The notes under the pieces are model-generated. The model searched no databases, was not told the origin of the DNA, and saw nothing but the letters and a program-made list of their open reading frames with translations. The position numbers and the translations under genes were made by a program. DNA of 52,981 nucleotides from a virus. The DNA lies in the UHGV virus genome UHGV-1367038; one strand, written 5' to 3'. This document shows positions 4,160 through 15,782 of this stretch, piece after piece; position 1 is the first letter of the stretch, and every line of letters begins with the position of its first letter.

Positions 4160-4426
4160 ATGAAAGACGTTAGCTTGCAATTTACTGATAAACAGCAATA
4201 CAACGACATTGTGATTAACAGCGGCTGGCTGGACGAAAATCAGCAAACCGTGTTTATTGATGATATTGGTTTTGTTCTTGTATTCGATGATCCAGAAAGC
4301 GACACGCCTGTACTGATTGAGAAAAAAGGCTATTACGTCAACATGCGCATAACTGGTGACGATGTTGATTTGTCGCCGCTGGAAAAATTCATCATTCCAG
4401 ATCCCGGCGTCCGCGCATGGGCTTAA
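4160..4426 (+). CDS. Hypothetical protein downstream of tail fiber
   Basis: ATG with AAGGTGG RBS; 88 aa; the listed ORF start at 4142 is a TTG. Confidence 0.5.
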   Translation: MKDVSLQFTDKQQYNDIVINSGWLDENQQTVFIDDIGFVLVFDDPESDTPVLIEKKGYYVNMRITGDDVDLSPLEKFIIPDPGVRAWA

Positions 4427-4470
4427 TGGTGCGATAGTAACAGCATGGTGATGTTGAAGACATCGCCGCG

Positions 4471-4500
4471 AAACGAGGCTAACGCCTCGTTTCTTTTTGT
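4471..4500 (+). terminator. Rho-independent terminator
   Basis: AAACGAGGC-taac-GCCTCGTTT then CTTTTTGT. Confidence 0.7.
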
Positions 4501-4519
4501 GTACCAAATAGTGACCAAA
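4499..4519. repeat. Arm-type direct repeat copy 1 (GTGTACCAAATAGTGACCAAA), candidate integrase arm site in attP
   Basis: 19/21 identical to copy at 4740..4760; flanks int. Confidence 0.45.
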
Positions 4520-4702
4520 TATCAAAAATCAAAAGCAAAAATAACGTAATACACTGTTTTATAAATGATTATTCGTTGCGCTAACCATTCCAGACAGGAC
4601 CAGCGCACTATGTTTAAAGGTGTTTAACTCCGTTCAATCTCTCCACTAAAATTACTTAAAAATCATCCGGTTGTAACCAAAATCAAGCGTCACGTTTCTA
4701 AT

Positions 4703-4731
4703 TCCGTACAATACTGTTAATATCCGTACAA
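4703..4731. repeat. Two direct copies of TCCGTACAA spaced 20 bp, inside attP-like region
   Basis: Exact 9-bp repeats at 4703..4711 and 4723..4731. Confidence 0.35.
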
Positions 4732-4739
4732 CAAAAACT

Positions 4740-4760
4740 GTGTACCAAAACGTGACCAAA
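4740..4760. repeat. Arm-type direct repeat copy 2 (GTGTACCAAAACGTGACCAAA)
   Basis: Immediately upstream of int start. Confidence 0.45.
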
Positions 4761-4774
4761 AATGGGGGTGCAGC

Positions 4775-5989
4775 ATGCTTACGGATACCAGGTTAAGGAC
4801 TATTGCCAACAAGCCATATGACGGCCCAGGCGAGATAGCTGATCGTGATGGCCTGTCAGCCAGGATAAGCCCAAAAGGGAAAATTACCTTTCAGTACCGT
4901 TACAGATTCAACGGTAAGCCAGTGCGAATGAAGATCGGCGAGTACGGGAAAATGAGTCTGAAAGACGCCCGCTACGCGGTGGCTGAATACAGGGAGTTGC
5001 TTACGAAAGGGAAGAATCCGGCACTGTGCGTAAAGCAGGCCATAGCCTTTGAGCAGGGCAAGCGATCTATATCCGACGTAGTGGAAGACTACCTATCCCT
5101 GCCGAACGTCATTAAGCTGGTGGCGTATAAAGAAGTAAAAAGCGCATTGATGCGCCACGTGGTCAACAAGTACGGCGACTACATAGCTGACGACGTAACG
5201 ACAAAACAGTGGATGGATATATTTGGCGAGATCACGAAGGCGGGGCACGCCGTTACGGCGGGTTTGATATTAAAGCGAATGAAAATCATCGTTAACAGCG
5301 CAATCAGGCGCGGGATAATGACTAACACAGCGATAAACAATATCCGTGTCGCTGACGTTGGCGAGCATTATGCGGTGGGTGAACGTTATTTATCATGCGA
5401 GGAGATAGGTCACTTCTGGCGCACTGTAGACAGTTCGCAGATCTATCCGCAGAACAAAATAGCCTTAAAGCTATTATTGCTAACAGGGTGTAGGGTTGGT
5501 GAATTGCAGAAAATGAGAAGGGAACACCTCGACCTGGATAACGGTGTGTGGACCGTTCCGGCGGCGGTGGCGAAGACAAGAAGTGAAATCAGGCGGGGAT
5601 TATCTGACTTGTCGATAAAAATGCTCAGGGAGGTTTTAACCTCCCATGAGTATGATTATGTATTCCCGCCAGTGATTAACGGCGGCAACAGGCCAGTAAA
5701 CGTATCAGTGATAAAAGTAGCTGCAATATTCGTGCGTAAAAGGATGGGCGGTAAATCATGGTCCTGTCACGACCTCCGCAGGACGTGCCGGACACACCTT
5801 TCAGCTATAGGTGTTCCGGTACATATTGCAGAAAAGATCTTAGGCCATTCATTAAGGGGAATACTGGCGGTGTACGACAAATATGATTATCTTGATGAAC
5901 AAAAGGAGGCACTAAATAAGTTTGCTGATTATGTGTTATCTTTGGCTGACGTTAAACCAATCCGATCAAAGAACTGCATTACGTCCTGA
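4775..5989 (+). CDS. int: Tyrosine integrase (P4-like, N-terminal arm-binding domain)
   Basis: 404 aa; N-terminal DUF4102-like arm-binding pattern; C-terminal HDLRRT...HSLRG...Y catalytic motifs; GGGGG RBS. Confidence 0.9.
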   Translation: MLTDTRLRTIANKPYDGPGEIADRDGLSARISPKGKITFQYRYRFNGKPVRMKIGEYGKMSLKDARYAVAEYRELLTKGKNPALCVKQAIAFEQGKRSISDVVEDYLSLPNVIKLVAYKEVKSALMRHVVNKYGDYIADDVTTKQWMDIFGEITKAGHAVTAGLILKRMKIIVNSAIRRGIMTNTAINNIRVADVGEHYAVGERYLSCEEIGHFWRTVDSSQIYPQNKIALKLLLLTGCRVGELQKMRREHLDLDNGVWTVPAAVAKTRSEIRRGLSDLSIKMLREVLTSHEYDYVFPPVINGGNRPVNVSVIKVAAIFVRKRMGGKSWSCHDLRRTCRTHLSAIGVPVHIAEKILGHSLRGILAVYDKYDYLDEQKEALNKFADYVLSLADVKPIRSKNCITS

Positions 5990-6159
5990 TAGCGGTACAT
6001 AACGCCACGCCCGGTCCCAAGTACGTCAACCGGGTCGGGGAACGGAGTTCCGTTCCGTTCCCATTTTTTACGCCATAAGTAAAACGTTCCCCTGCTAATT
6101 CCCCCAAGCATCCGGCAGATGGCAGGGCGACTAAGAAGGATTGTCCCGGTTTTATCCAT
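5929..6159 (-). CDS. AlpA-family HTH regulator / putative excisionase
   Basis: 76 aa; AlpA-like HTH (LLSRPAICRMLGGISRGTFYLWRKK); 3' end overlaps int 3' end by 61 nt. Confidence 0.65.
   Translation of the reverse strand: MDKTGTILLSRPAICRMLGGISRGTFYLWRKKWERNGTPFPDPVDVLGTGRGVMYRYQDVMQFFDRIGLTSAKDNT
6038..6070 (+). terminator. Terminator-like hairpin downstream of int, embedded in the AlpA-like coding region
   Basis: GGAACGG-agtt-CCGTTCC followed by ATTTTTTA. Confidence 0.4.
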
Positions 6160-6806
6160 TATTTATCCCCCGTGTATTCAACGTGTCCGATACATCCGTC
6201 TATAATAGCTTGCGCCATGTTGCGATAATCACGCGAATAATCATTATCACGATTGAAATTTATTTCTCCTGCTGCGTCTTCACCAATAACCTTAGTAGCC
6301 AGTGCAAACGCAATTTGCGCCAGTGCTTTTTCTTTCGGATCTATCCAGCGGCGATACCTAAAACGGTTCCATCTTGCTGTTTCTTCACATTTTCCAGTCC
6401 TTCTAACAAATATCCCTATTTCATCGCCAGTAAAAATATATTTGGCTACGCAGTATACAGGCGCAAAGTCACCTGGGTAAAATTCGAGCCATACATCTAA
6501 CGGCGGTCTTTCCCCTGGCTGCCATTCCTCGACTTTTGGTTTATCACAATCATGGCGCTCATCTTCGATTAACTCGTCAATGATTTCACTTTCTTTATTC
6601 ATGCCATCATCATCAATGTTTTTATATTCTTCAAAAACCCATGAAGCCGCCATTACTGAATAAGTGCCGCCAGTATCAGCGCGAACGCCCAAAAGGAAAG
6701 ATGATCCATATTGGTATTCGCTGCGGTATGTAGCAACCTCAAAAGAAGGGTAAAAGTCCGGATCTACACGATGTCGAATTATGCCAATTGCTTTAAGTTT
6801 ATTCAT
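6159..6806 (-). CDS. Hypothetical protein
   Basis: 215 aa ORF; GAGGGT RBS; stop overlaps the AlpA-like start. Confidence 0.6.
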   Translation of the reverse strand: MNKLKAIGIIRHRVDPDFYPSFEVATYRSEYQYGSSFLLGVRADTGGTYSVMAASWVFEEYKNIDDDGMNKESEIIDELIEDERHDCDKPKVEEWQPGERPPLDVWLEFYPGDFAPVYCVAKYIFTGDEIGIFVRRTGKCEETARWNRFRYRRWIDPKEKALAQIAFALATKVIGEDAAGEINFNRDNDYSRDYRNMAQAIIDGCIGHVEYTGDK

Positions 6807-8392: not shown

Positions 8393-8471
8393 TGTTTTTA
8401 GCCTCAATTTAAGCGCGAAAACAGCCACCAGAAAGCGGTAAACTTTCCGGTAAGCCGTTTGCTCAAGTTAA

Positions 8472-9893
8472 TTAAAAAGATGCTTTATTCTGGTTGTTTC
8501 GTGGCGAGAATCGGCTTACCGCCGGACGTTGTTGCATTGACTGGATGCAAGCTGACGCCGCGCGGGCCTGGTCACACGGTAATATGTTGCCGTTGTCGTC
8601 AAAACGCTGGTAAACAGTCCCGGTTTTTCCGTGACGGTTTTTTGAAACGATAATCTCCATGTATTCGCGTGCAACAGATTGTTCGTTGTAGTAGCCGTCG
8701 CGGTATACCATGATGATCCGGTCTGCGTCCTGTTCAAGATTGCCGGAATCGCGCAGATCAGAATTGTTCGGTCGCTTGTTCGGTCGTTCCTCGACGCGGC
8801 GGGATAATTGCGCCAGCGCCGCCACTGGTACGCGCAATTCTTTCGCCATCATTTTCAACGACCATGATAATTGCCCTACAGCGAGATCATGACGTTCGGC
8901 CTTAGCCAGCTTCATTAACCCGATGTAGTCAATCATTACCATACCCAGGTTAGGGTGATCCTGTTTCATTCGTTCGGCGGTGGCGCGTATTTCCTCGACC
9001 GTTAACTGTGATGCGTCAACAATCCATACTTCAAGATCAGCAAGTGCGCTCATACCCTGGGCTACGTGCGCCCATCCTTCATCATCAAGTTTTACCGGGT
9101 TACGCAGGCAATCAGTTGATAAGTTCCCAGCGCCAGCTATAGCGCGTTCGGTCATTTGATCAAGCGACATTTCAAGCGTAAAGAGCAAAACACCGACCCG
9201 CTGGCCTTCGCCGCCAGGGTAGGGGCGTTCAGCCGCCGAGCGGGCTATTGCTAACGCTAACGCTGATTTGCCAGACCCAGGACGTCCGGCGATAAGCACA
9301 AGATCAGTGGCGTTAATGCCGCCTAACATTTCGTCGAGTGGTTCTATCCCTGTTTTTATGTTGTCAGAATTGACACCGCATTCCATGCGCTTACTTAAAA
9401 CTTCCGTGTACTCCTGTACTGCGTCGCGCAACAGTACCGGAAGGATCTTGTCTTTCGTTACCTTTAATTTTGAATACCGGGAATCAAAATCCTTCATCGT
9501 CTCCTTGACAACCTCAAGCGTCCCCGTTTCCAGCTTGTAGCGAACGTCTTCCATTAGCTCCAGCATTTGCCGCCGCTGGTGTTCTTCCTGTAGTAGCTGC
9601 GCGTACCCTTTCAGGTTGGCAGCAGAAGGACACGATCGCGCCGTTTGCATTAGCGGTATGAAATTTTCGTTACCGATTTCATCACCAACCAATAACGCGT
9701 CGATAAGATTTCTGTTTCTGGCTTGCGCCCTGATGATTTCGAACGCGCGCCTGTACAGAGGAATAGTGAATACATCAGGATCGAGTGTAGCAAGAACATC
9801 TTGCGCGTTAGGAGTAAGCCCGCCTAACAGGAGGCCACCTATAACAGCCGCTTCGCGCTCCTGCCGCAATGAGTTCACTTGCTCAGTTATCAT
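8472..9893 (-). CDS. dnaB: Replicative DNA helicase (DnaB family)
   Basis: 473 aa; Walker A GRPGSGKSALALAIA; DnaB-like N- and C-terminal domains. Confidence 0.9.
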   Translation of the reverse strand: MITEQVNSLRQEREAAVIGGLLLGGLTPNAQDVLATLDPDVFTIPLYRRAFEIIRAQARNRNLIDALLVGDEIGNENFIPLMQTARSCPSAANLKGYAQLLQEEHQRRQMLELMEDVRYKLETGTLEVVKETMKDFDSRYSKLKVTKDKILPVLLRDAVQEYTEVLSKRMECGVNSDNIKTGIEPLDEMLGGINATDLVLIAGRPGSGKSALALAIARSAAERPYPGGEGQRVGVLLFTLEMSLDQMTERAIAGAGNLSTDCLRNPVKLDDEGWAHVAQGMSALADLEVWIVDASQLTVEEIRATAERMKQDHPNLGMVMIDYIGLMKLAKAERHDLAVGQLSWSLKMMAKELRVPVAALAQLSRRVEERPNKRPNNSDLRDSGNLEQDADRIIMVYRDGYYNEQSVAREYMEIIVSKNRHGKTGTVYQRFDDNGNILPCDQARAASACIQSMQQRPAVSRFSPRNNQNKASF

Positions 9894-9911
9894 TATGGAA
9901 TTACCTCATGT

Positions 9912-11030
9912 TTACAAAATGGAATATTCAGGGTAATAAACAAAGCGCCCAATTTCTCCATGAGCCGGGCTGTAAATAATCACCGCCGCCAGCCGCCGTG
10001 AACGCCAGCCGCCATTCGTCGAGTAAGCATCTTTGCCAGCTAACGTTCCGTGATACTCGACAACGCCTAACGATGATTCAATCAGCCGCTGGTGATGCCA
10101 GTGTCCGCAATGAGCGTAAACCGACGACGATTTACCGAAATCCTCCCGCCAGTCAGAAACACAGGCAGCAAGTAAGGTTTCTGGTTTTTTGATGGTGTGT
10201 CCGTGGTGGTAAGCAAGGAATGTTTTTCCGTATTGTGTGTGGTGGACGATAGCAGGGGACACATCAACCGTTACGCGCGGTTCATCTTCGTAAAAAGCCG
10301 CCAGCGCCGCACGTAGCCAAATCATCCCCGACTGATCGTGATTGCCGGATAACACCTGGATCTCGACGTCCTTATGGTTTAACAACATTTTCCCCACCGC
10401 ACGCCGGACCGACCGGATCGCCACATAAACAAGTTTTGCGTAGCGTGAATCGCAATCTAAGACGTGATTACTTGATGGCGTCACTGGTAATAGCCCGTCC
10501 GTGTGAAGCACATCACCGCCGAGAAGCAATACAGCTTTTTCAGACGTTGGTGCAGCGCCTACAGCGTAGTCAAAGAAGTCATTTAACACGCGTTCAGCGA
10601 TCCCGGTGTCGTAGCTTTCTCCGCATTCAGCTTTATGCGCAAGCGCCCCGATATGCAGATCGAATACCGGATAAAGGGCCAGGCTTTTCTGAAAATCAAT
10701 TTCCGGCACTGGCACGGCTTCCGCGCGCGGCATTTCTTCCGTAAATGCGTCACAAGCTGCCTGCATTAGCCTTTCCATTTCCTCACGGTCACGGGCCGTT
10801 TTAATCCAGCGCATGATTACATTGCCATCTTTATCAACGAGCAATGATTCACCATTGACACCAAAACCCGGCGCGCGGCGCGTGGATATTAAACCGCGTT
10901 TCGCCAGCCGTGCGCCCAGGCGCTCGACGTTGCGTTTTGCCATGCCGTACTTCTCAGCGATCTGTTTATACGTCAGGCCGCTGTTATGTTCAGCGATTAA
11001 TTCCTCATCGCTGATCTTTCTTTGTGACAT
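9912..11030 (-). CDS. HTH domain fused to calcineurin-like metallophosphoesterase (Mre11/SbcD-like motifs)
   Basis: N-terminal HTH (LTYKQIAEKYGMAKRNVERL); DLH, GGDVLH, GNHD, GHWHH motifs; start taken at ATG 11030 with GAGGA RBS (alternative 11045). Confidence 0.6.
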   Translation of the reverse strand: MSQRKISDEELIAEHNSGLTYKQIAEKYGMAKRNVERLGARLAKRGLISTRRAPGFGVNGESLLVDKDGNVIMRWIKTARDREEMERLMQAACDAFTEEMPRAEAVPVPEIDFQKSLALYPVFDLHIGALAHKAECGESYDTGIAERVLNDFFDYAVGAAPTSEKAVLLLGGDVLHTDGLLPVTPSSNHVLDCDSRYAKLVYVAIRSVRRAVGKMLLNHKDVEIQVLSGNHDQSGMIWLRAALAAFYEDEPRVTVDVSPAIVHHTQYGKTFLAYHHGHTIKKPETLLAACVSDWREDFGKSSSVYAHCGHWHHQRLIESSLGVVEYHGTLAGKDAYSTNGGWRSRRLAAVIIYSPAHGEIGRFVYYPEYSIL

Positions 11031-11159
11031 AACGTTATTCCTCATGTTTACAGAATGTATATTTATTTTCCGTAAAACGCGCTACAACGCAAAATCCCAC
11101 CGCGTAACCCACTTATAAGAGTGCAGTGTCTTTCTTGCGTCAGAGGCGCTATCAGGTGG

Positions 11160-11393
11160 CTATTTTTTGATTTTTAAGATGACATAAACGTTAGCTTGTT
11201 GGCGTCCATGCAATTTACTCCTGCAAATGGCTATTACTCCGGCCTGTTCCAGAGATCGGATCGCTAGCTTAACACTTTGCCGACTCACTCCCAACCTGTC
11301 AGCAAGCATGATAAGTGATATTTGATAACCTCCCGTCCGGCAATGCACAGCCAGCAGATCGTAAACTTTACGCTCAGTTTTGGTTAATTTCAT
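11160..11393 (-). CDS. Small winged-helix DNA-binding protein
   Basis: 77 aa; wHTH pattern LADRLGVSRQSVKLAIRSLEQAGVI. Confidence 0.5.
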   Translation of the reverse strand: MKLTKTERKVYDLLAVHCRTGGYQISLIMLADRLGVSRQSVKLAIRSLEQAGVIAICRSKLHGRQQANVYVILKIKK

Positions 11394-11520: not shown

Positions 11521-12513
11521 TCAAAGAGCGCCAGCGCGGGTGTCGCGTAGCGTTTTTGGTTTTAGTAAGAAATCTAGTGTCGCAGTGAAGCCATTGCCGA
11601 AGTAAAAATCTGAGGCCGTATTTTTGAACGCTTCGAAGTAGCTGATAAAGCCTTTGATGCTTTTATCTTTCAGGTAGTCAGAGAACGCATAAATTTTACG
11701 TTCCAGATCCCGATCAAGTTCAGCAGGTGGTAACAGGCCATCAAACGTGCTGTTAAATGCTTCCACTACGTCGGCGGCGTTTACGGTAGCTGATAGCTTG
11801 CGCCATTGTTCAGCATCAGCCAGATACCCATCGAATTTAGTTACCCGGCAAATGTTAATAGGCTTAGGCACTCCACCACGACTACGCCATTGAGTCAAAG
11901 CCCATTCAATTACTAATGTGATCTCATCCTCCGTATATGCCTTACGTGTTTTTGTTTCTGTCAGTAGTTCGATAAATGGTTTTGCGTCACGACATTTGCA
12001 TCCTGCCTTGTCGTTGTAGAAGGCTAGGCAACGCAATGCTGCCAAATTAGCCGCCTGATCTTCTTCGCTAATAGGCCCGTCTTTTTCCAATACACGGAGT
12101 GTATTGTTTTTAATGTTCTCTTTACTGGTTATATATGACTGATTAGGGTGTCTCTCTGACACTACCCCCGGTGTCACAGTGACACTACCCTGGTGTCTCT
12201 CTGACACTACCCCCGGTGTCTCTCTGACACTACCCTGTAATGATGGTAAGACGATTACATAGAAGTTACTTGTTTGCTCTTTTCCTCCTATTAGATATCG
12301 AGGTTGCTTAATCAATAACCCTTTCTCACAAAGAGCATCAATAGCCCGCATAGCTGTGCTTTTGCCTATTTCGCATTGCTTTGCTATGTGCTGGTAAGAA
12401 GGGTAACATTCGCCGTTATCGTTAGCGTTATCAGCCAACTTTAACAGCACAAGTTTGTGCATTGGGTTGCCGACTTCAGTATGAAAGACTTCAACCATTA
12501 GCCGCATACTCAT
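11521..12513 (-). CDS. Replication initiator (lambda O-like, N-terminal HTH) containing origin iterons
   Basis: HTH (SYQHIAKQCEIGKSTAMRAIDALCEKGLL); four iterons inside the ORF; AGGAGG RBS before ATG 12513 (alternative 12519; listed start 12561 is TTG). Confidence 0.7.
   Translation of the reverse strand: MSMRLMVEVFHTEVGNPMHKLVLLKLADNANDNGECYPSYQHIAKQCEIGKSTAMRAIDALCEKGLLIKQPRYLIGGKEQTSNFYVIVLPSLQGSVRETPGVVSERHQGSVTVTPGVVSERHPNQSYITSKENIKNNTLRVLEKDGPISEEDQAANLAALRCLAFYNDKAGCKCRDAKPFIELLTETKTRKAYTEDEITLVIEWALTQWRSRGGVPKPINICRVTKFDGYLADAEQWRKLSATVNAADVVEAFNSTFDGLLPPAELDRDLERKIYAFSDYLKDKSIKGFISYFEAFKNTASDFYFGNGFTATLDFLLKPKTLRDTRAGAL
12147..12236. repeat. Four tandem ~22-bp iterons (GGTGTCTCTCTGACACTACCCC), candidate replication origin
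   Basis: Direct repeats each containing a GTGTC..GACAC palindrome; AT-rich segment on the gene-downstream side; inside O-like gene. Confidence 0.7.
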
Positions 12514-12821
12514 AAACATTGGCCTCCTATGGTTAAAATGAACGCGCGGGCGGGTATCCAATTAGCATTAGATAGCGGTGAGTGACCGCTTAACAGATCC
12601 CGCCGTTGCGTGATATTTGTCTTTCGCTTCGCAGCGACACCGGATTTTTAAAGAGCATGAGGTATGCGCCTTTTTGTGCTATTCCGTTATCTTTTTTCTT
12701 GCGTCTTTGCAACTATGGCCTTACCTTGTCTGCAAGTTTACAGAATGGAGTTTTTAGATCAAGACTTGAAAAATACATTTTGTGACTTGTATCAAACTTT
12801 TTGAGGTTATAGGGTAGCGAC

Positions 12822-13469
12822 ATGAAAACAAAATGGTATGACTTAGCAAAGCAGCTCATGCGAGCGCAAGGCATGAGCCAGGATTCACTCGCGGATCTCA
12901 TGGGGATAACTAAAGGCGGCCTGTCACACTGGCTTAACGGTCGCCGCGAGCCAAATCTTGAAGATATTGCGCGGATTATGCGGGCACTTGGTCGTCGGCA
13001 GTTCACTGTTACCCATGATGGAATGGTCATTGATGATTCTGTTTCTAACACGTTACCGGGAGCGCCGCAGCGTGATTTAGGCAGTTACCCGGTTGTTGAC
13101 TGGAAGGACACAGTAAACAATATGGAAGATACAAGGCGATCAACATTACCACACGTTACGACTAGCGTTATTTGTTCAGATGATAGTTACTGGCTGGTTG
13201 CTAAAGGTGAATCAATGAACGCGCCGCAGGGGTTGAGCATCCCTGCCGGGACGATGATACTTGTTGACCCACACGCGCCAGCTATCGATGGAAAGCTGGT
13301 TATAGCACAGCTTGAGGAAGGGCAAATACCGACGTTTAAACAGTTGATTATTGATGGAGGTCAAAGGCTTTTACGTTCGCTTAACCCGCTGTATCCACCA
13401 ATCCCCATGAATCCTGAATCGAAAATCATAGGCGTGGTGGTGGACGCGAAGATCGTAAACCTGCCATAA
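12822..13469 (+). CDS. cI: CI-like repressor (HTH plus S24 LexA-like peptidase domain)
   Basis: 215 aa; N-terminal XRE HTH; C-terminal AKGESM serine motif; ATG 8 nt after a TATAGG -10-like hexamer (possibly leaderless). Confidence 0.85.
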   Translation: MKTKWYDLAKQLMRAQGMSQDSLADLMGITKGGLSHWLNGRREPNLEDIARIMRALGRRQFTVTHDGMVIDDSVSNTLPGAPQRDLGSYPVVDWKDTVNNMEDTRRSTLPHVTTSVICSDDSYWLVAKGESMNAPQGLSIPAGTMILVDPHAPAIDGKLVIAQLEEGQIPTFKQLIIDGGQRLLRSLNPLYPPIPMNPESKIIGVVVDAKIVNLP

Positions 13470-14079: not shown

Positions 14080-14202
14080 ATGGTTGTTCAGGCGCTTCAA
14101 TTCAAACTGGCTGTAGCGGAAATGCTTCACGATGCCGAAATGTGGAGCACCGCGAATAAAGCTTTATATGTAGTGTTAACAGCGAGGGAGATTAAAGGGT
14201 GA
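14080..14202 (+). CDS. Small hypothetical protein (40 aa)
   Basis: AAAGGTGA RBS; stop overlaps GTG start of erf. Confidence 0.35.
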   Translation: MVVQALQFKLAVAEMLHDAEMWSTANKALYVVLTAREIKG

Positions 14203-14840
14203 AAACAGAATTACATAAAAAGCTGTGGACTATTCAGCAGACGCTGAATGCGCCGAAAAGTCAGCGCAATAATTTTGGCGGTTATAATTATCGTTCGGCA
14301 GAAGATATTTTAGAGGCTGTTAAACCACTGCTTCAAAATATCACTCTGACGGTAAGTGATGAAATCGTCTTAATTGGCGAACGCTATTACGTGAAAGCTA
14401 CGGCGACACTAAGTGACGGTGAGGACGCGATAGCGGTAACTGCTTACGCAAGGGAGGAAGATAATAAGAAGGGAATGGATGCAAGCCAGCTAACAGGAGC
14501 AACATCAAGTTACGCGCGGAAATATGCTTTGAACGGTTTATTCTGCATAGACGATGCAAAAGACGCGGATACTGATGCTTACAGTAAGCAGACAGGCCAG
14601 CAGCCTAGACAGCAGAAAAACCAGCCAAAACAACAACAGCAGAAGCAGAAAGCGCCGCCAAATCCTGATGAAGTGTTAGCGCGTTTCTGTGATGCAGCAG
14701 CGAAAGCGCCGGACGCTAACAAGTTGCGTGAAATATTCGGTAAATGCTGGAAATTACTGCCGGAAGGATCGGAACATCGAGTTAAAGCAAAAGATGTTTA
14801 TGACATCCGGATCGCAGAGCTTAATGGGGAGATGAGCTAA
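14199..14840 (+). CDS. erf: ERF-family single-strand annealing protein
   Basis: 213 aa; NFGGYNYRSAEDILEAVKPLL typical of Erf; GTG start. Confidence 0.7.
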   Translation: MKTELHKKLWTIQQTLNAPKSQRNNFGGYNYRSAEDILEAVKPLLQNITLTVSDEIVLIGERYYVKATATLSDGEDAIAVTAYAREEDNKKGMDASQLTGATSSYARKYALNGLFCIDDAKDADTDAYSKQTGQQPRQQKNQPKQQQQKQKAPPNPDEVLARFCDAAAKAPDANKLREIFGKCWKLLPEGSEHRVKAKDVYDIRIAELNGEMS

Positions 14841-15289
14841 TGAGTTTAAATTCAATCACGCTTGGCGGGAATATCGGAAACGACATGGAAGTACGCTATA
14901 CGCAAAACGGGAAGGCGATTGGTAGTTTTCCGTTAGCTGTAACGAATGGCTACGGCGATAATAAGCGGGTAATGTGGATCACTTGTCTGGTATTCGGTGA
15001 GCGTGCTGAAAAATTAGCGCCGCATATCCGCAAGGGTGGAAAGATAGTGGTAAGCGGTCGCCTGGATGTTCGGCAATATGACCGGAACGACGGCACGAAA
15101 GGAACGGCGGTAGAAGTGGCGGTTAATGAATTCGAGTTTTGCAGCAGGAATGACCAACAGCAACAACAGCAGAAAGCGCAACCGCAAAACAATAATGGAA
15201 ACTATCCACCGCCGGATGATTTCGATCCAGACATTCCGTTTAGTCCTGTGGGGTTGCAATATGGACGACACAGAATCTACGCGCTATAA
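14840..15289 (+). CDS. ssb: Single-stranded DNA-binding protein with C-terminal extension
   Basis: OB-fold N-terminus; Gln/Pro-rich linker; DFDPDIPF followed by 15 extra residues before the stop. Confidence 0.8.
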   Translation: MSLNSITLGGNIGNDMEVRYTQNGKAIGSFPLAVTNGYGDNKRVMWITCLVFGERAEKLAPHIRKGGKIVVSGRLDVRQYDRNDGTKGTAVEVAVNEFEFCSRNDQQQQQQKAQPQNNNGNYPPPDDFDPDIPFSPVGLQYGRHRIYAL

Positions 15290-15782
15290 ACGATGTTTTA
15301 AATGTGGGGCATTATTGCCCCTTTCTTGTTTCTATAAAAATAAACAAATGGCTGATGGTCACGTAAATAAATGCAAGGAATGCACAAAACGAGATGTTAG
15401 AGATAATTACAGGAAAAATAGAGAATATTACAAGGAATATGACAGAATAAGAGATCAGTCGGAAGAAAGAAAGGAGATGAAAAGAAAGTATATTCAAACC
15501 GAAAAAGGCAAGGAAGCACATAAAAGATGTTGCGATAAATGGCAGGAAAATAACCAGAAGAAAAGACACGCTGAAATAATGGTAGGAAATGCCATCCGTG
15601 ATGGCAAGCTGGTCAAACAACCTTGCGAAGTATGCGGAAGAAGCGAACGCGTTCACGCTCACCATTGCGATTATGATAAGCCGTTAGACGTTATGTGGCT
15701 TTGTCCTATTTGCCATCGAGCGTGGCACAATGAGCATGGTGAAGGAGCCAACGCACATGACGAGGTGGTTAGCGATGGGTGA
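15261..15782 (+). CDS. HNH endonuclease with zinc-finger motifs
   Basis: CFKCG, CEVCG, HAHHCDYDKPLDVMWLCPICHRAWH; start at ATG 15261 inside SSB 3' end. Confidence 0.6.
   Translation: MDDTESTRYKRCFKCGALLPLSCFYKNKQMADGHVNKCKECTKRDVRDNYRKNREYYKEYDRIRDQSEERKEMKRKYIQTEKGKEAHKRCCDKWQENNQKKRHAEIMVGNAIRDGKLVKQPCEVCGRSERVHAHHCDYDKPLDVMWLCPICHRAWHNEHGEGANAHDEVVSDG

Follow-up and report, generated by a model that had tools for sequence, protein, structure and literature searches.

A helix-turn-helix metallophosphoesterase gene next to the DnaB helicase gene of an mEpimmI-type temperate coliphage

The HTH-MPE gene and its product

The window analyzed here is the whole 52,981-nucleotide (nt) virus genome UHGV-1367038. 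On its minus strand, between the genes for an O-like replication initiator and a DnaB-family helicase, lies a gene whose product combines an N-terminal helix-turn-helix (HTH) domain with a metallophosphoesterase (MPE) domain; gene and protein are here designated HTH-MPE. The protein is predicted with high confidence to be an active MPE enzyme with a DNA-binding domain. Residue numbers refer to the 377-amino-acid (aa) version that starts at ATG 11045, unless the 372-aa version is stated. The gene and its parts are as follows.

9912..11030, minus strand: HTH-MPE gene, 372 aa (MSQRK...) from ATG 11030, stop codon TAA at 9912-9914
10899..11009, minus strand: N-terminal three-helix HTH DNA-binding domain, residues 13-49
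10740..10859, minus strand: linker module, beta-hairpin 63-83 and helix 87-102, from AlphaFold2 (AF2) models
9915..10691, minus strand: binuclear MPE catalytic domain, calcineurin-like and Mre11/SbcD-like, residues 119-377, with no capping domain after it
10653..10661, minus strand: MPE motif I, D129-L-H131, from the translation, aligning to SDWHLG of Thermotoga maritima Mre11
10503..10517, minus strand: MPE motif II, G177-D-V-L-H181 (Mre11-type GDxxH), aligning to GDLLH of T. maritima Mre11
10443..10496, minus strand: family-specific conserved loop between motifs II and III, G184-R201 (VTPxSxHxLDxDxR), from conservation
10335..10346, minus strand: MPE motif III, G234-N-H-D237, from the translation
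10197..10205, minus strand: MPE motif IV, H281-G-H283, from the translation
10095..10106, minus strand: MPE motif V/VI, G314-H-W-H317, from the translation

The initial annotation had described an HTH fused to an Mre11/SbcD-like MPE with an intact active site, and this description is borne out by the family match, the structural model, and the invariant residues reported below. All of the motifs that it quoted are present, namely, DLH (residues 129 to 131), GDVLH (177 to 181), GNHD (234 to 237), HGH (281 to 283), and GHWH (314 to 317).

Conservation was measured on an alignment of 54 diverse relatives with 30% to 56% identity. Ten residues were invariant (D129, H131, G177, D178, T189, N235, H236, H281, G314, and H317), and these columns mostly belong to MPE motifs I, II, III, IV, and VI, suggesting that catalysis is the selected function; H181 and H315 were conserved in at least 90% of the relatives. 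The loop between motifs II and III contains, in addition to the invariant T189, the near-invariant D197, D199, and R201, and could possibly be a substrate-binding element, although the per-residue confidence of the AF2 model (pLDDT) is low across residues 184 to 197. In the linker hairpin, Trp80 is near-invariant (conserved in at least 90%). The HTH is the least conserved part of the protein (mean identity, 21%, versus 38% for the MPE domain). Together, the HTH and the linker form an N-terminal module of ~105 aa that is exchanged as a unit, as seen from a mosaic boundary at about residue 105 in P0100; no specific structural match was found for the N-terminal linker module.

The AF2 model has a mean pLDDT of 79.5 and consists of helices in residues 13 to 49, a hairpin (63 to 83), a helix (87 to 102), and an alpha/beta sandwich (119 to 370). 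The catalytic part has the beta-alpha-beta-alpha-beta sandwich fold of the MPE superfamily (PF00149/SSF56300) and carries the metal-ligand motifs DxH, GD, GNH(D/E), H, and GHxH in the right order. The profile searches and structure prediction that the initial annotation had proposed as a check thus uphold the MPE fold.

Among the profile collections, PHROG 704 ("DNA repair exonuclease") was matched over the full length (E value, 2.5e-137; 459 bits; residues 9 to 373 against positions 2 to 387 of the 390-position profile). Pfam and NCBIfam scans of the protein itself gave weak HTH matches alone. Of its 54 relatives, 13 matched PF00149 (best E value, 2.7e-5) and 9 matched PF12850, and the N termini of many of them matched Sigma70_r4_2 (1.5e-9), GerE (2.4e-8), or LysR-, Fis-, and homeodomain-like HTHs. 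Judged from these sequences, the HTH-MPE family is a divergent MPE branch. Searches of Protein Data Bank (PDB) sequences with the single sequence or with a profile of close homologues retrieved HTH domains only, and HTH matches also dominated when a diverse full-length profile was used. The sequence link to Mre11/SbcD appeared only with a profile restricted to the MPE domain (alignment A3). Run against all PDB sequences, this profile retrieved just two kinds of MPE, T. maritima Mre11/SbcD (E value, 0.01) and a Pseudomonas putida nuclease MPE (E value, 1.3), and it aligned TDxHLG, GDLLH..PS, GNHD, and GHxH with the T. maritima protein.

When the model was compared with known structures, the highest scores were obtained for Mre11 (3qg5_C; 14.1), SbcD (7dog_B; 14.0), and MJ0936 (13.7), followed on the same scale by PolD DP1 (13.6), further Mre11/SbcD entries (12 to 12.8), and PPP-type protein phosphatases (~9). 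"Mre11/SbcD-like" is therefore the right nearest neighbor, with a small margin over other MPE subfamilies. A further explanation considered is that HTH-MPE is a replisome scaffold or proofreading-type subunit, like archaeal PolD DP1 or the eukaryotic polymerase B-subunits. In those proteins an OB fold precedes the phosphodiesterase domain, whereas HTH-MPE has just a two-stranded hairpin N-terminal to its MPE domain; they also have a catalytic polymerase partner, whereas the window lacks a gene for a polymerase large subunit, and most carriers have the gene outside their replication modules. We consider this explanation very improbable. A BFVD structure search returned only uncharacterized or generically named phage proteins, and PADLOC gave no defense-system match.

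According to the open reading frame (ORF) list, the minus-strand ORF 9912..11045 encodes 377 aa from its first ATG. The start at ATG 11030 (372 aa), which the initial annotation had chosen, is nevertheless better than the alternative at ATG 11045, for three reasons: (i) a Shine-Dalgarno (SD)-like GAGGA lies 8 to 9 nt upstream of it; (ii) the closest homologues are 372 aa long; and (iii) the 13-nt sequence TGTAAACATGAGG also precedes the DnaB start, where the internal ATG is followed by an immediate stop. This 13-nt sequence, which carries an SD-like GAGG, is an exact direct repeat that brackets the MPE ORF on the minus strand. The copy at 11040-11052 is located 9 nt ahead of the MPE ATG 11030, and the copy at 9904-9916 includes the MPE TAA stop and is located 10 nt ahead of the DnaB ATG 9893. 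Apart from the window, just one identical contig has the repeat in exact form. It was considered as a conserved cassette boundary and rejected as a general feature, its conservation in relatives being only partial.

The replication operon and the MPE-DnaB pair

The minus-strand early operon has the order O-like initiator, 77-aa winged-helix ORF, HTH-MPE, DnaB, MarR-like gene, and NinB, and the genes for a CI/LexA-type repressor, Erf, and SSB (a protein that binds single-stranded DNA) are divergent from it. The features around HTH-MPE are as follows.

8425..8453, minus strand: terminator-like hairpin just after DnaB, from a consensus scan; weak, the total number of sites not being above chance
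8472..9893, minus strand: replicative helicase, DnaB family, P22 gp12 type (PF03796, 3.9e-76; PF00772), starting 18 nt past the MPE stop
11160..11393, minus strand: 77-aa winged-helix (MarR-type) ORF between the initiator and MPE genes (PF12802, 6.1e-7)
11521..12519, minus strand: O-like replication initiator (PF13730, 4.8e-15; PHROG initiator families)
12147..12235, no strand assigned: iteron array, 3.9 copies of the 23-nt GGTGTCTCTCTGACACTACCCCC, inside the O-like gene, from a repeat search and Tandem Repeats Finder
15126-15782, plus strand: HNH/endonuclease VII-like ORF (phrog_2340, 9.6e-47), after Erf (14199-14840) and SSB (14840-15289)

HTH-MPE had been placed between the O-like initiator and DnaB in the initial annotation, which is right, with the addition that the 77-aa ORF separates the initiator from the MPE gene. 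That ORF was found only in the window and in one identical IMG/VR contig among ~80 related loci and is a variable accessory gene. The contents of the slot between initiator and MPE vary: besides the 77-aa winged HTH, it can hold small ORFs, a 495-aa zinc-ribbon protein (mEp021), or an Ant antirepressor (L137), and the gap is a hot spot for accessory genes. The likely start of the O-like gene is an ATG near 12519, which follows AGGAGG, whereas the program ORF starts at TTG 12561. Each GGTGTCTCTCTGACACTACCCCC unit of the array inside this gene holds a GTGTC-N5-GACAC dyad, and translation of the array gives the initiator a repeated peptide. The array resembles a replication origin with iterons inside the initiator gene, by analogy with lambda.

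MPE and DnaB are probably coexpressed, given the 18-nt gap, the lack of a terminator-like site between the two genes in the consensus scan, and the adjacency kept in relatives. When the operon was scanned for promoters and terminators, sites were no more frequent than chance, so that no separate MPE transcription unit can be claimed.

The window belongs to the mEpimmI group, the Nus-dependent non-lambdoid temperate coliphages mEp021, mEp010, mEp013, mEp044, mEp515, mEp554, and MagusPhagus. Its MPE protein is 97% identical to the copy in Escherichia phage MagusPhagus, which is annotated "DNA repair exonuclease," and a 100%-identical copy is present in an IMG/VR contig. The genome paper on the mEpimmI group does not mention the HTH-MPE gene. 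In all 42 loci retrieved through DnaB, which form an mEpimmI-like clade, MPE lies directly upstream of DnaB, with a gap of ~21 nt or, where an HNH gene is inserted, ~550 nt. The pair is also kept in the more distant locus L137, in which identity to the window is 72% for MPE, 57% for DnaB, and 55% for cI.

Locus L140 (P0100, 3923-5044) has a mosaic allele. Its first 105 aa are ~95% identical to those of the window protein, whereas the catalytic domain, in which the invariant catalytic residues are retained, is only 45% identical. Next comes an HNH gene, and identity to the window is 88% to 91% for the O-like gene and DnaB that flank the allele (DnaB, 91%). Plausibly, the catalytic-domain cassette was swapped by coconversion during HNH homing. 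The swap shows the N-terminal module and the catalytic domain to be separable and implies that the catalytic domain need not be coadapted to this DnaB; it is a generic, exchangeable module.

HNH or homing endonuclease genes were found immediately 3' of HTH-MPE in L008 (mEp021; 5963-6466), L009 (mEp010; 4409-4999), L140 (5037-5582), L133 (9137-9709), L138 (8137-8709), L004 (6181-6690), and L005 (5046-5579). This suggests that the 3' end or junction of HTH-MPE is a recurrent homing site across several unrelated phage lineages.

The window operon is of the same type as the P22 gp18/gp12 module. With the helicase of the P22-like Lederbergvirus MG40, the closest DnaB outside the mEpimmI group, its DnaB shares 57% identity, and the last 90 aa of its O-like protein are homologous (35% identical) to the C terminus of the gp18-like protein of MG40. 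In MG40, the gp18-like initiator gene overlaps the helicase gene, with neither a loader nor an MPE. NinB is located downstream in both, whereas the window has accessory genes and HTH-MPE between the initiator and the helicase. The operon is thus a P22-type initiator-helicase module with extra genes inserted.

This relationship bears on whether HTH-MPE could load the phage DnaB or serve as its adaptor, a loader having been expected by the initial annotation at this position. The gene lies directly upstream of DnaB in the window as in each of its 42 close relatives and, further away, in L137 and L140, and no recognizable loader is encoded in the operon. The expectation does not hold for a DnaB of the P22 type, however, as the closest outside DnaB works in a two-gene gp18-gp12 module without HTH-MPE. 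In addition, Pfam, PHROG, and NCBIfam searches gave no similarity to DnaC/IstB, lambda P, DnaD/DnaB-Bsu, DciA, or SPP1 G39P; the invariant active site would be needless in a pure loader; and in L140 the catalytic domain was swapped for a 45%-identical allele beside an unchanged DnaB.

Two further observations concern the surroundings of the operon. In the 300-nt gap at 12520-12821, between the cI-like repressor gene (12822-13469, plus strand) and the O-like gene, no cro-like ORF of at least 40 aa was found in the right orientation; mEp021, mEp010, MagusPhagus, and L140 carry an 81- to 85-aa MarR-like ORF in this cI-O gap. The program ORF of the HNH/endonuclease VII-like protein begins before SSB ends and matches the profile from residue 52 on; the true start is probably further downstream.

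Family distribution and predicted function

The initial annotation had regarded the domain combination as unusual. It is not: the same full-length architecture is that of PHROG 704 and was detected by tblastn in 2,042 of 50,697 phage records, 1,954 of which cover 80% or more of the query. When 1.84 billion representatives were searched exhaustively with HMMER (E value, <=1e-3), 4,312 clusters at 50% identity were found, nearly all of 370 to 420 aa. Carriers include T1-like Drexlerviridae and Klebsiella Webervirus (60% to 67% identity; T1-like phage proteins, 66% to 67%), Jerseyvirus (44%), Casjensviridae, and Vibrio, Roseobacter, Campylobacter, and Thermus phages. The HTH-MPE fusion is common, and the family is already known, being catalogued and widely annotated. 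The gene has the following positions elsewhere.

Citrobacter phage Stevie: last in an operon with helicase, VRR-NUC, and methylase genes, immediately ahead of the holin gene
Jerseyvirus: alone, antisense, within the tail module
L139: alone, antisense, within a structural-gene module
Vibrio phage: preceded by a lysis gene and followed by an HNH gene
Proteus phage: between the portal and capsid genes, next to an HNH gene in convergent orientation
Rhodobacter phage: after holin and endolysin genes
Yersinia phage: next to the genes for PNK and dNMP kinase, following a lysis gene
Two metagenomic phages: following lysis genes
Two lambdoid prophages: at the end of the nin region, in the order MPE-HNH-Q-holin
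L045 (71% identical): between a T1-type helicase gene and a primase gene

In the contexts examined, HTH-MPE is not linked to DnaB outside the mEpimmI group. No DnaB gene was found within 10 kb in any of 40 T1-like loci. DnaB homologues occur in 1,322 phage records with a host spectrum quite different from that of HTH-MPE; for example, Klebsiella accounts for 468 phage records with MPE yet is not in the top ten of genera by DnaB-carrying records, a list that ends at 40 records. In most carriers, T1-like and Jersey-like phages among them, DnaB is absent and HTH-MPE has lysis, nin, or nucleotide-metabolism genes nearby. The consistent co-occurrence with the helicase that a loader would call for was not observed. 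The family also co-occurs with other solutions to helicase recruitment, since one of the two lambdoid prophages replicates by a primase-helicase fusion and the other by a DnaC/IstB-type loader. Taken together with the evidence from the operon, a loader or adaptor function is the least probable of the explanations considered here, and we give it hardly any weight.

Of ~10 unrelated lineages sampled, 7 have HTH-MPE within a few genes of a holin/endolysin cassette or of the early/late boundary.

HTH-MPE could also be a transcription regulator, its HTH binding a promoter or operator, for example for the timing of late or lysis genes, with the MPE domain as sensor or effector. In its N-terminal domain, the protein is similar to sigma-70 region 4 and to regulator domains of the LuxR/GerE type, the positions in 7 of ~10 lineages would suit such a role, and some records annotate the protein as a transcriptional regulator. 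However, it is the HTH that is least conserved (21% versus 38% for the MPE domain) and the catalytic residues that are invariant, the lambdoid carriers already encode Q, and the gene in the window is not near lysis genes. A regulator is accordingly improbable.

The explanation that we favor, with modest confidence, is that HTH-MPE is a stand-alone, HTH-tethered binuclear MPE of the Mre11/SbcD-like branch that acts as a DNA phosphodiesterase. The HTH would keep the enzyme bound to DNA, whose phosphodiester bonds the MPE domain would cleave in an Mn2+/Mg2+-dependent manner, with single-strand endonuclease or exonuclease activity on ends, hairpins, or branched intermediates. In a temperate mEpimmI-type coliphage, it would be an early product alongside the P22 gp12-type DnaB and could process DNA as an accessory to replication or to Erf-dependent recombination, or could degrade host DNA. 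Helicase loading would not be among its tasks; recruitment of the helicase would most simply be attributed to the O-like initiator, as in P22 gp18/gp12. A substrate of DNA is also suggested by the DNA- and nucleotide-metabolism neighbors in Stevie, L045, the Yersinia phage (PNK and dNMP kinase), and the lambdoid nin region. The alternative of a replication-associated nuclease or phosphatase, as put forward in the initial annotation, stays the best reading.

Several points weigh against this explanation. The Pfam Metallophos profiles (PF00149/PF12850) were not reached at an E value of <=0.1 for the protein itself, and its sequence link to Mre11 is marginal (E value, 0.01). In the lambdoid prophages, HTH-MPE sits just before Q, the slot that in lambda belongs to the NinI protein phosphatase. 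Many virulent phages place the gene by lysis cassettes and not by replication genes. The searchable literature holds no biochemical or genetic data on any family member. These points leave room for a non-DNA substrate. HTH-MPE would then be a phosphatase or phosphodiesterase, such as a NinI-like protein phosphatase, a hydrolase of nucleotide signals (cyclic nucleotides or oligonucleotides, Ap4A, or alarmones), possibly with an anti-defense role, or an RNA-end-healing enzyme, and its HTH would serve autoregulation or localization. We regard such a substrate as possible but on the unlikely side.

Within the favored explanation of a DNA phosphodiesterase, a more specific proposal is that, in mEpimmI-type phages, HTH-MPE and the P22 gp12-type DnaB associate physically as a pair of nuclease and helicase, either at the origin or at the fork. 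The docking site of the ~105-aa N-terminal module could be DnaB, the initiator, or the ori iterons, while the exchangeable MPE domain cuts or resects DNA. The proposal is kept because the MPE-DnaB adjacency survives heavy mosaicism on both sides and the catalytic-domain swap, but it is rather unlikely; the local linkage is compatible with functional pairing and no proof of it. If true, bacterial viruses would have in this pair a counterpart to Lhr-MPE or to Mre11 at forks.

As a discovery, the gene is of little weight, since the family is catalogued, near-identical GenBank copies are annotated, and the positional argument for a novel loader fails. It does draw attention to a widespread enzyme, present in ~4% of sequenced phage genomes and in most T1-like, Webervirus, and Jersey-like phages, with a function predicted from homology. 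The HTH is fused in nearly all members and the active site is invariant, and the "DNA repair exonuclease" label rests on a distant Mre11/SbcD similarity. The carriers include phages now used in phage therapy and in defense-system research, and knowing what one member does would allow thousands of genes to be annotated. The mEpimmI MPE-DnaB pairing, with E. coli K-12 as the host, is a tractable setting in which to study action on replication intermediates.

Comparison with known enzymes

Lambda NinI (ORF221), a Ser/Thr protein phosphatase, shares the MPE fold with HTH-MPE, and the HTH-MPE gene of the lambdoid prophages occupies the equivalent slot just upstream of Q. However, the motifs of PPP-type Ser/Thr phosphatases such as NinI (GDxHG, GDxVDRG, and GNHE) are not found in HTH-MPE. 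The P. putida nuclease MPE (6nvo) is much smaller, at ~200 aa, lacks an HTH, and is structurally further from HTH-MPE than Mre11 is. It is encoded with the Lhr helicase, whereas the neighbor of HTH-MPE here is DnaB.

The Mre11/SbcD proteins (T. maritima Mre11, 3qg5/2q8u; Staphylococcus aureus SbcD, 7dog; and E. coli SbcD, 6s6v) share with HTH-MPE the Mre11-type motifs TDxHLG and GDxxH, at an identity of ~15% to 18%. In contrast to them, HTH-MPE has no capping domain, ending in the last MPE strands (residues 353 to 359 and 363 to 370 of 377), and no C-terminal Rad50/SbcC-binding helices, whereas it adds the N-terminal HTH and hairpin module and the VTPxSxHxLDxDxR loop. No Rad50/SbcC/SMC-like ORF was found in the window, in which the ORFs of at least 400 aa encode tail fiber, integrase, TerL, portal, tape-measure, and phrog_760 or unknown structural-region proteins, and no Rad50/SbcC partner was found beside homologues in ~14 other contexts. 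Because it lacks both the capping domain and such a partner, the two defining parts of the Mre11/SbcD machinery, HTH-MPE is Mre11-like and not an Mre11/SbcD orthologue.

The closest known proteins are the members of PHROG 704, including MagusPhagus CDS0008, Citrobacter phage Stevie gp37, and mEp021_11, which have the same length, domain order, and catalytic motifs as the window protein. The name of this family is a homology-based label that overstates the relation to SbcCD/Mre11-Rad50. We found no structural difference between HTH-MPE and these proteins. Position alone differs: the gene abuts DnaB in mEpimmI-type phages, whereas elsewhere it is lysis proximal or lies in the nin region or a structural module.

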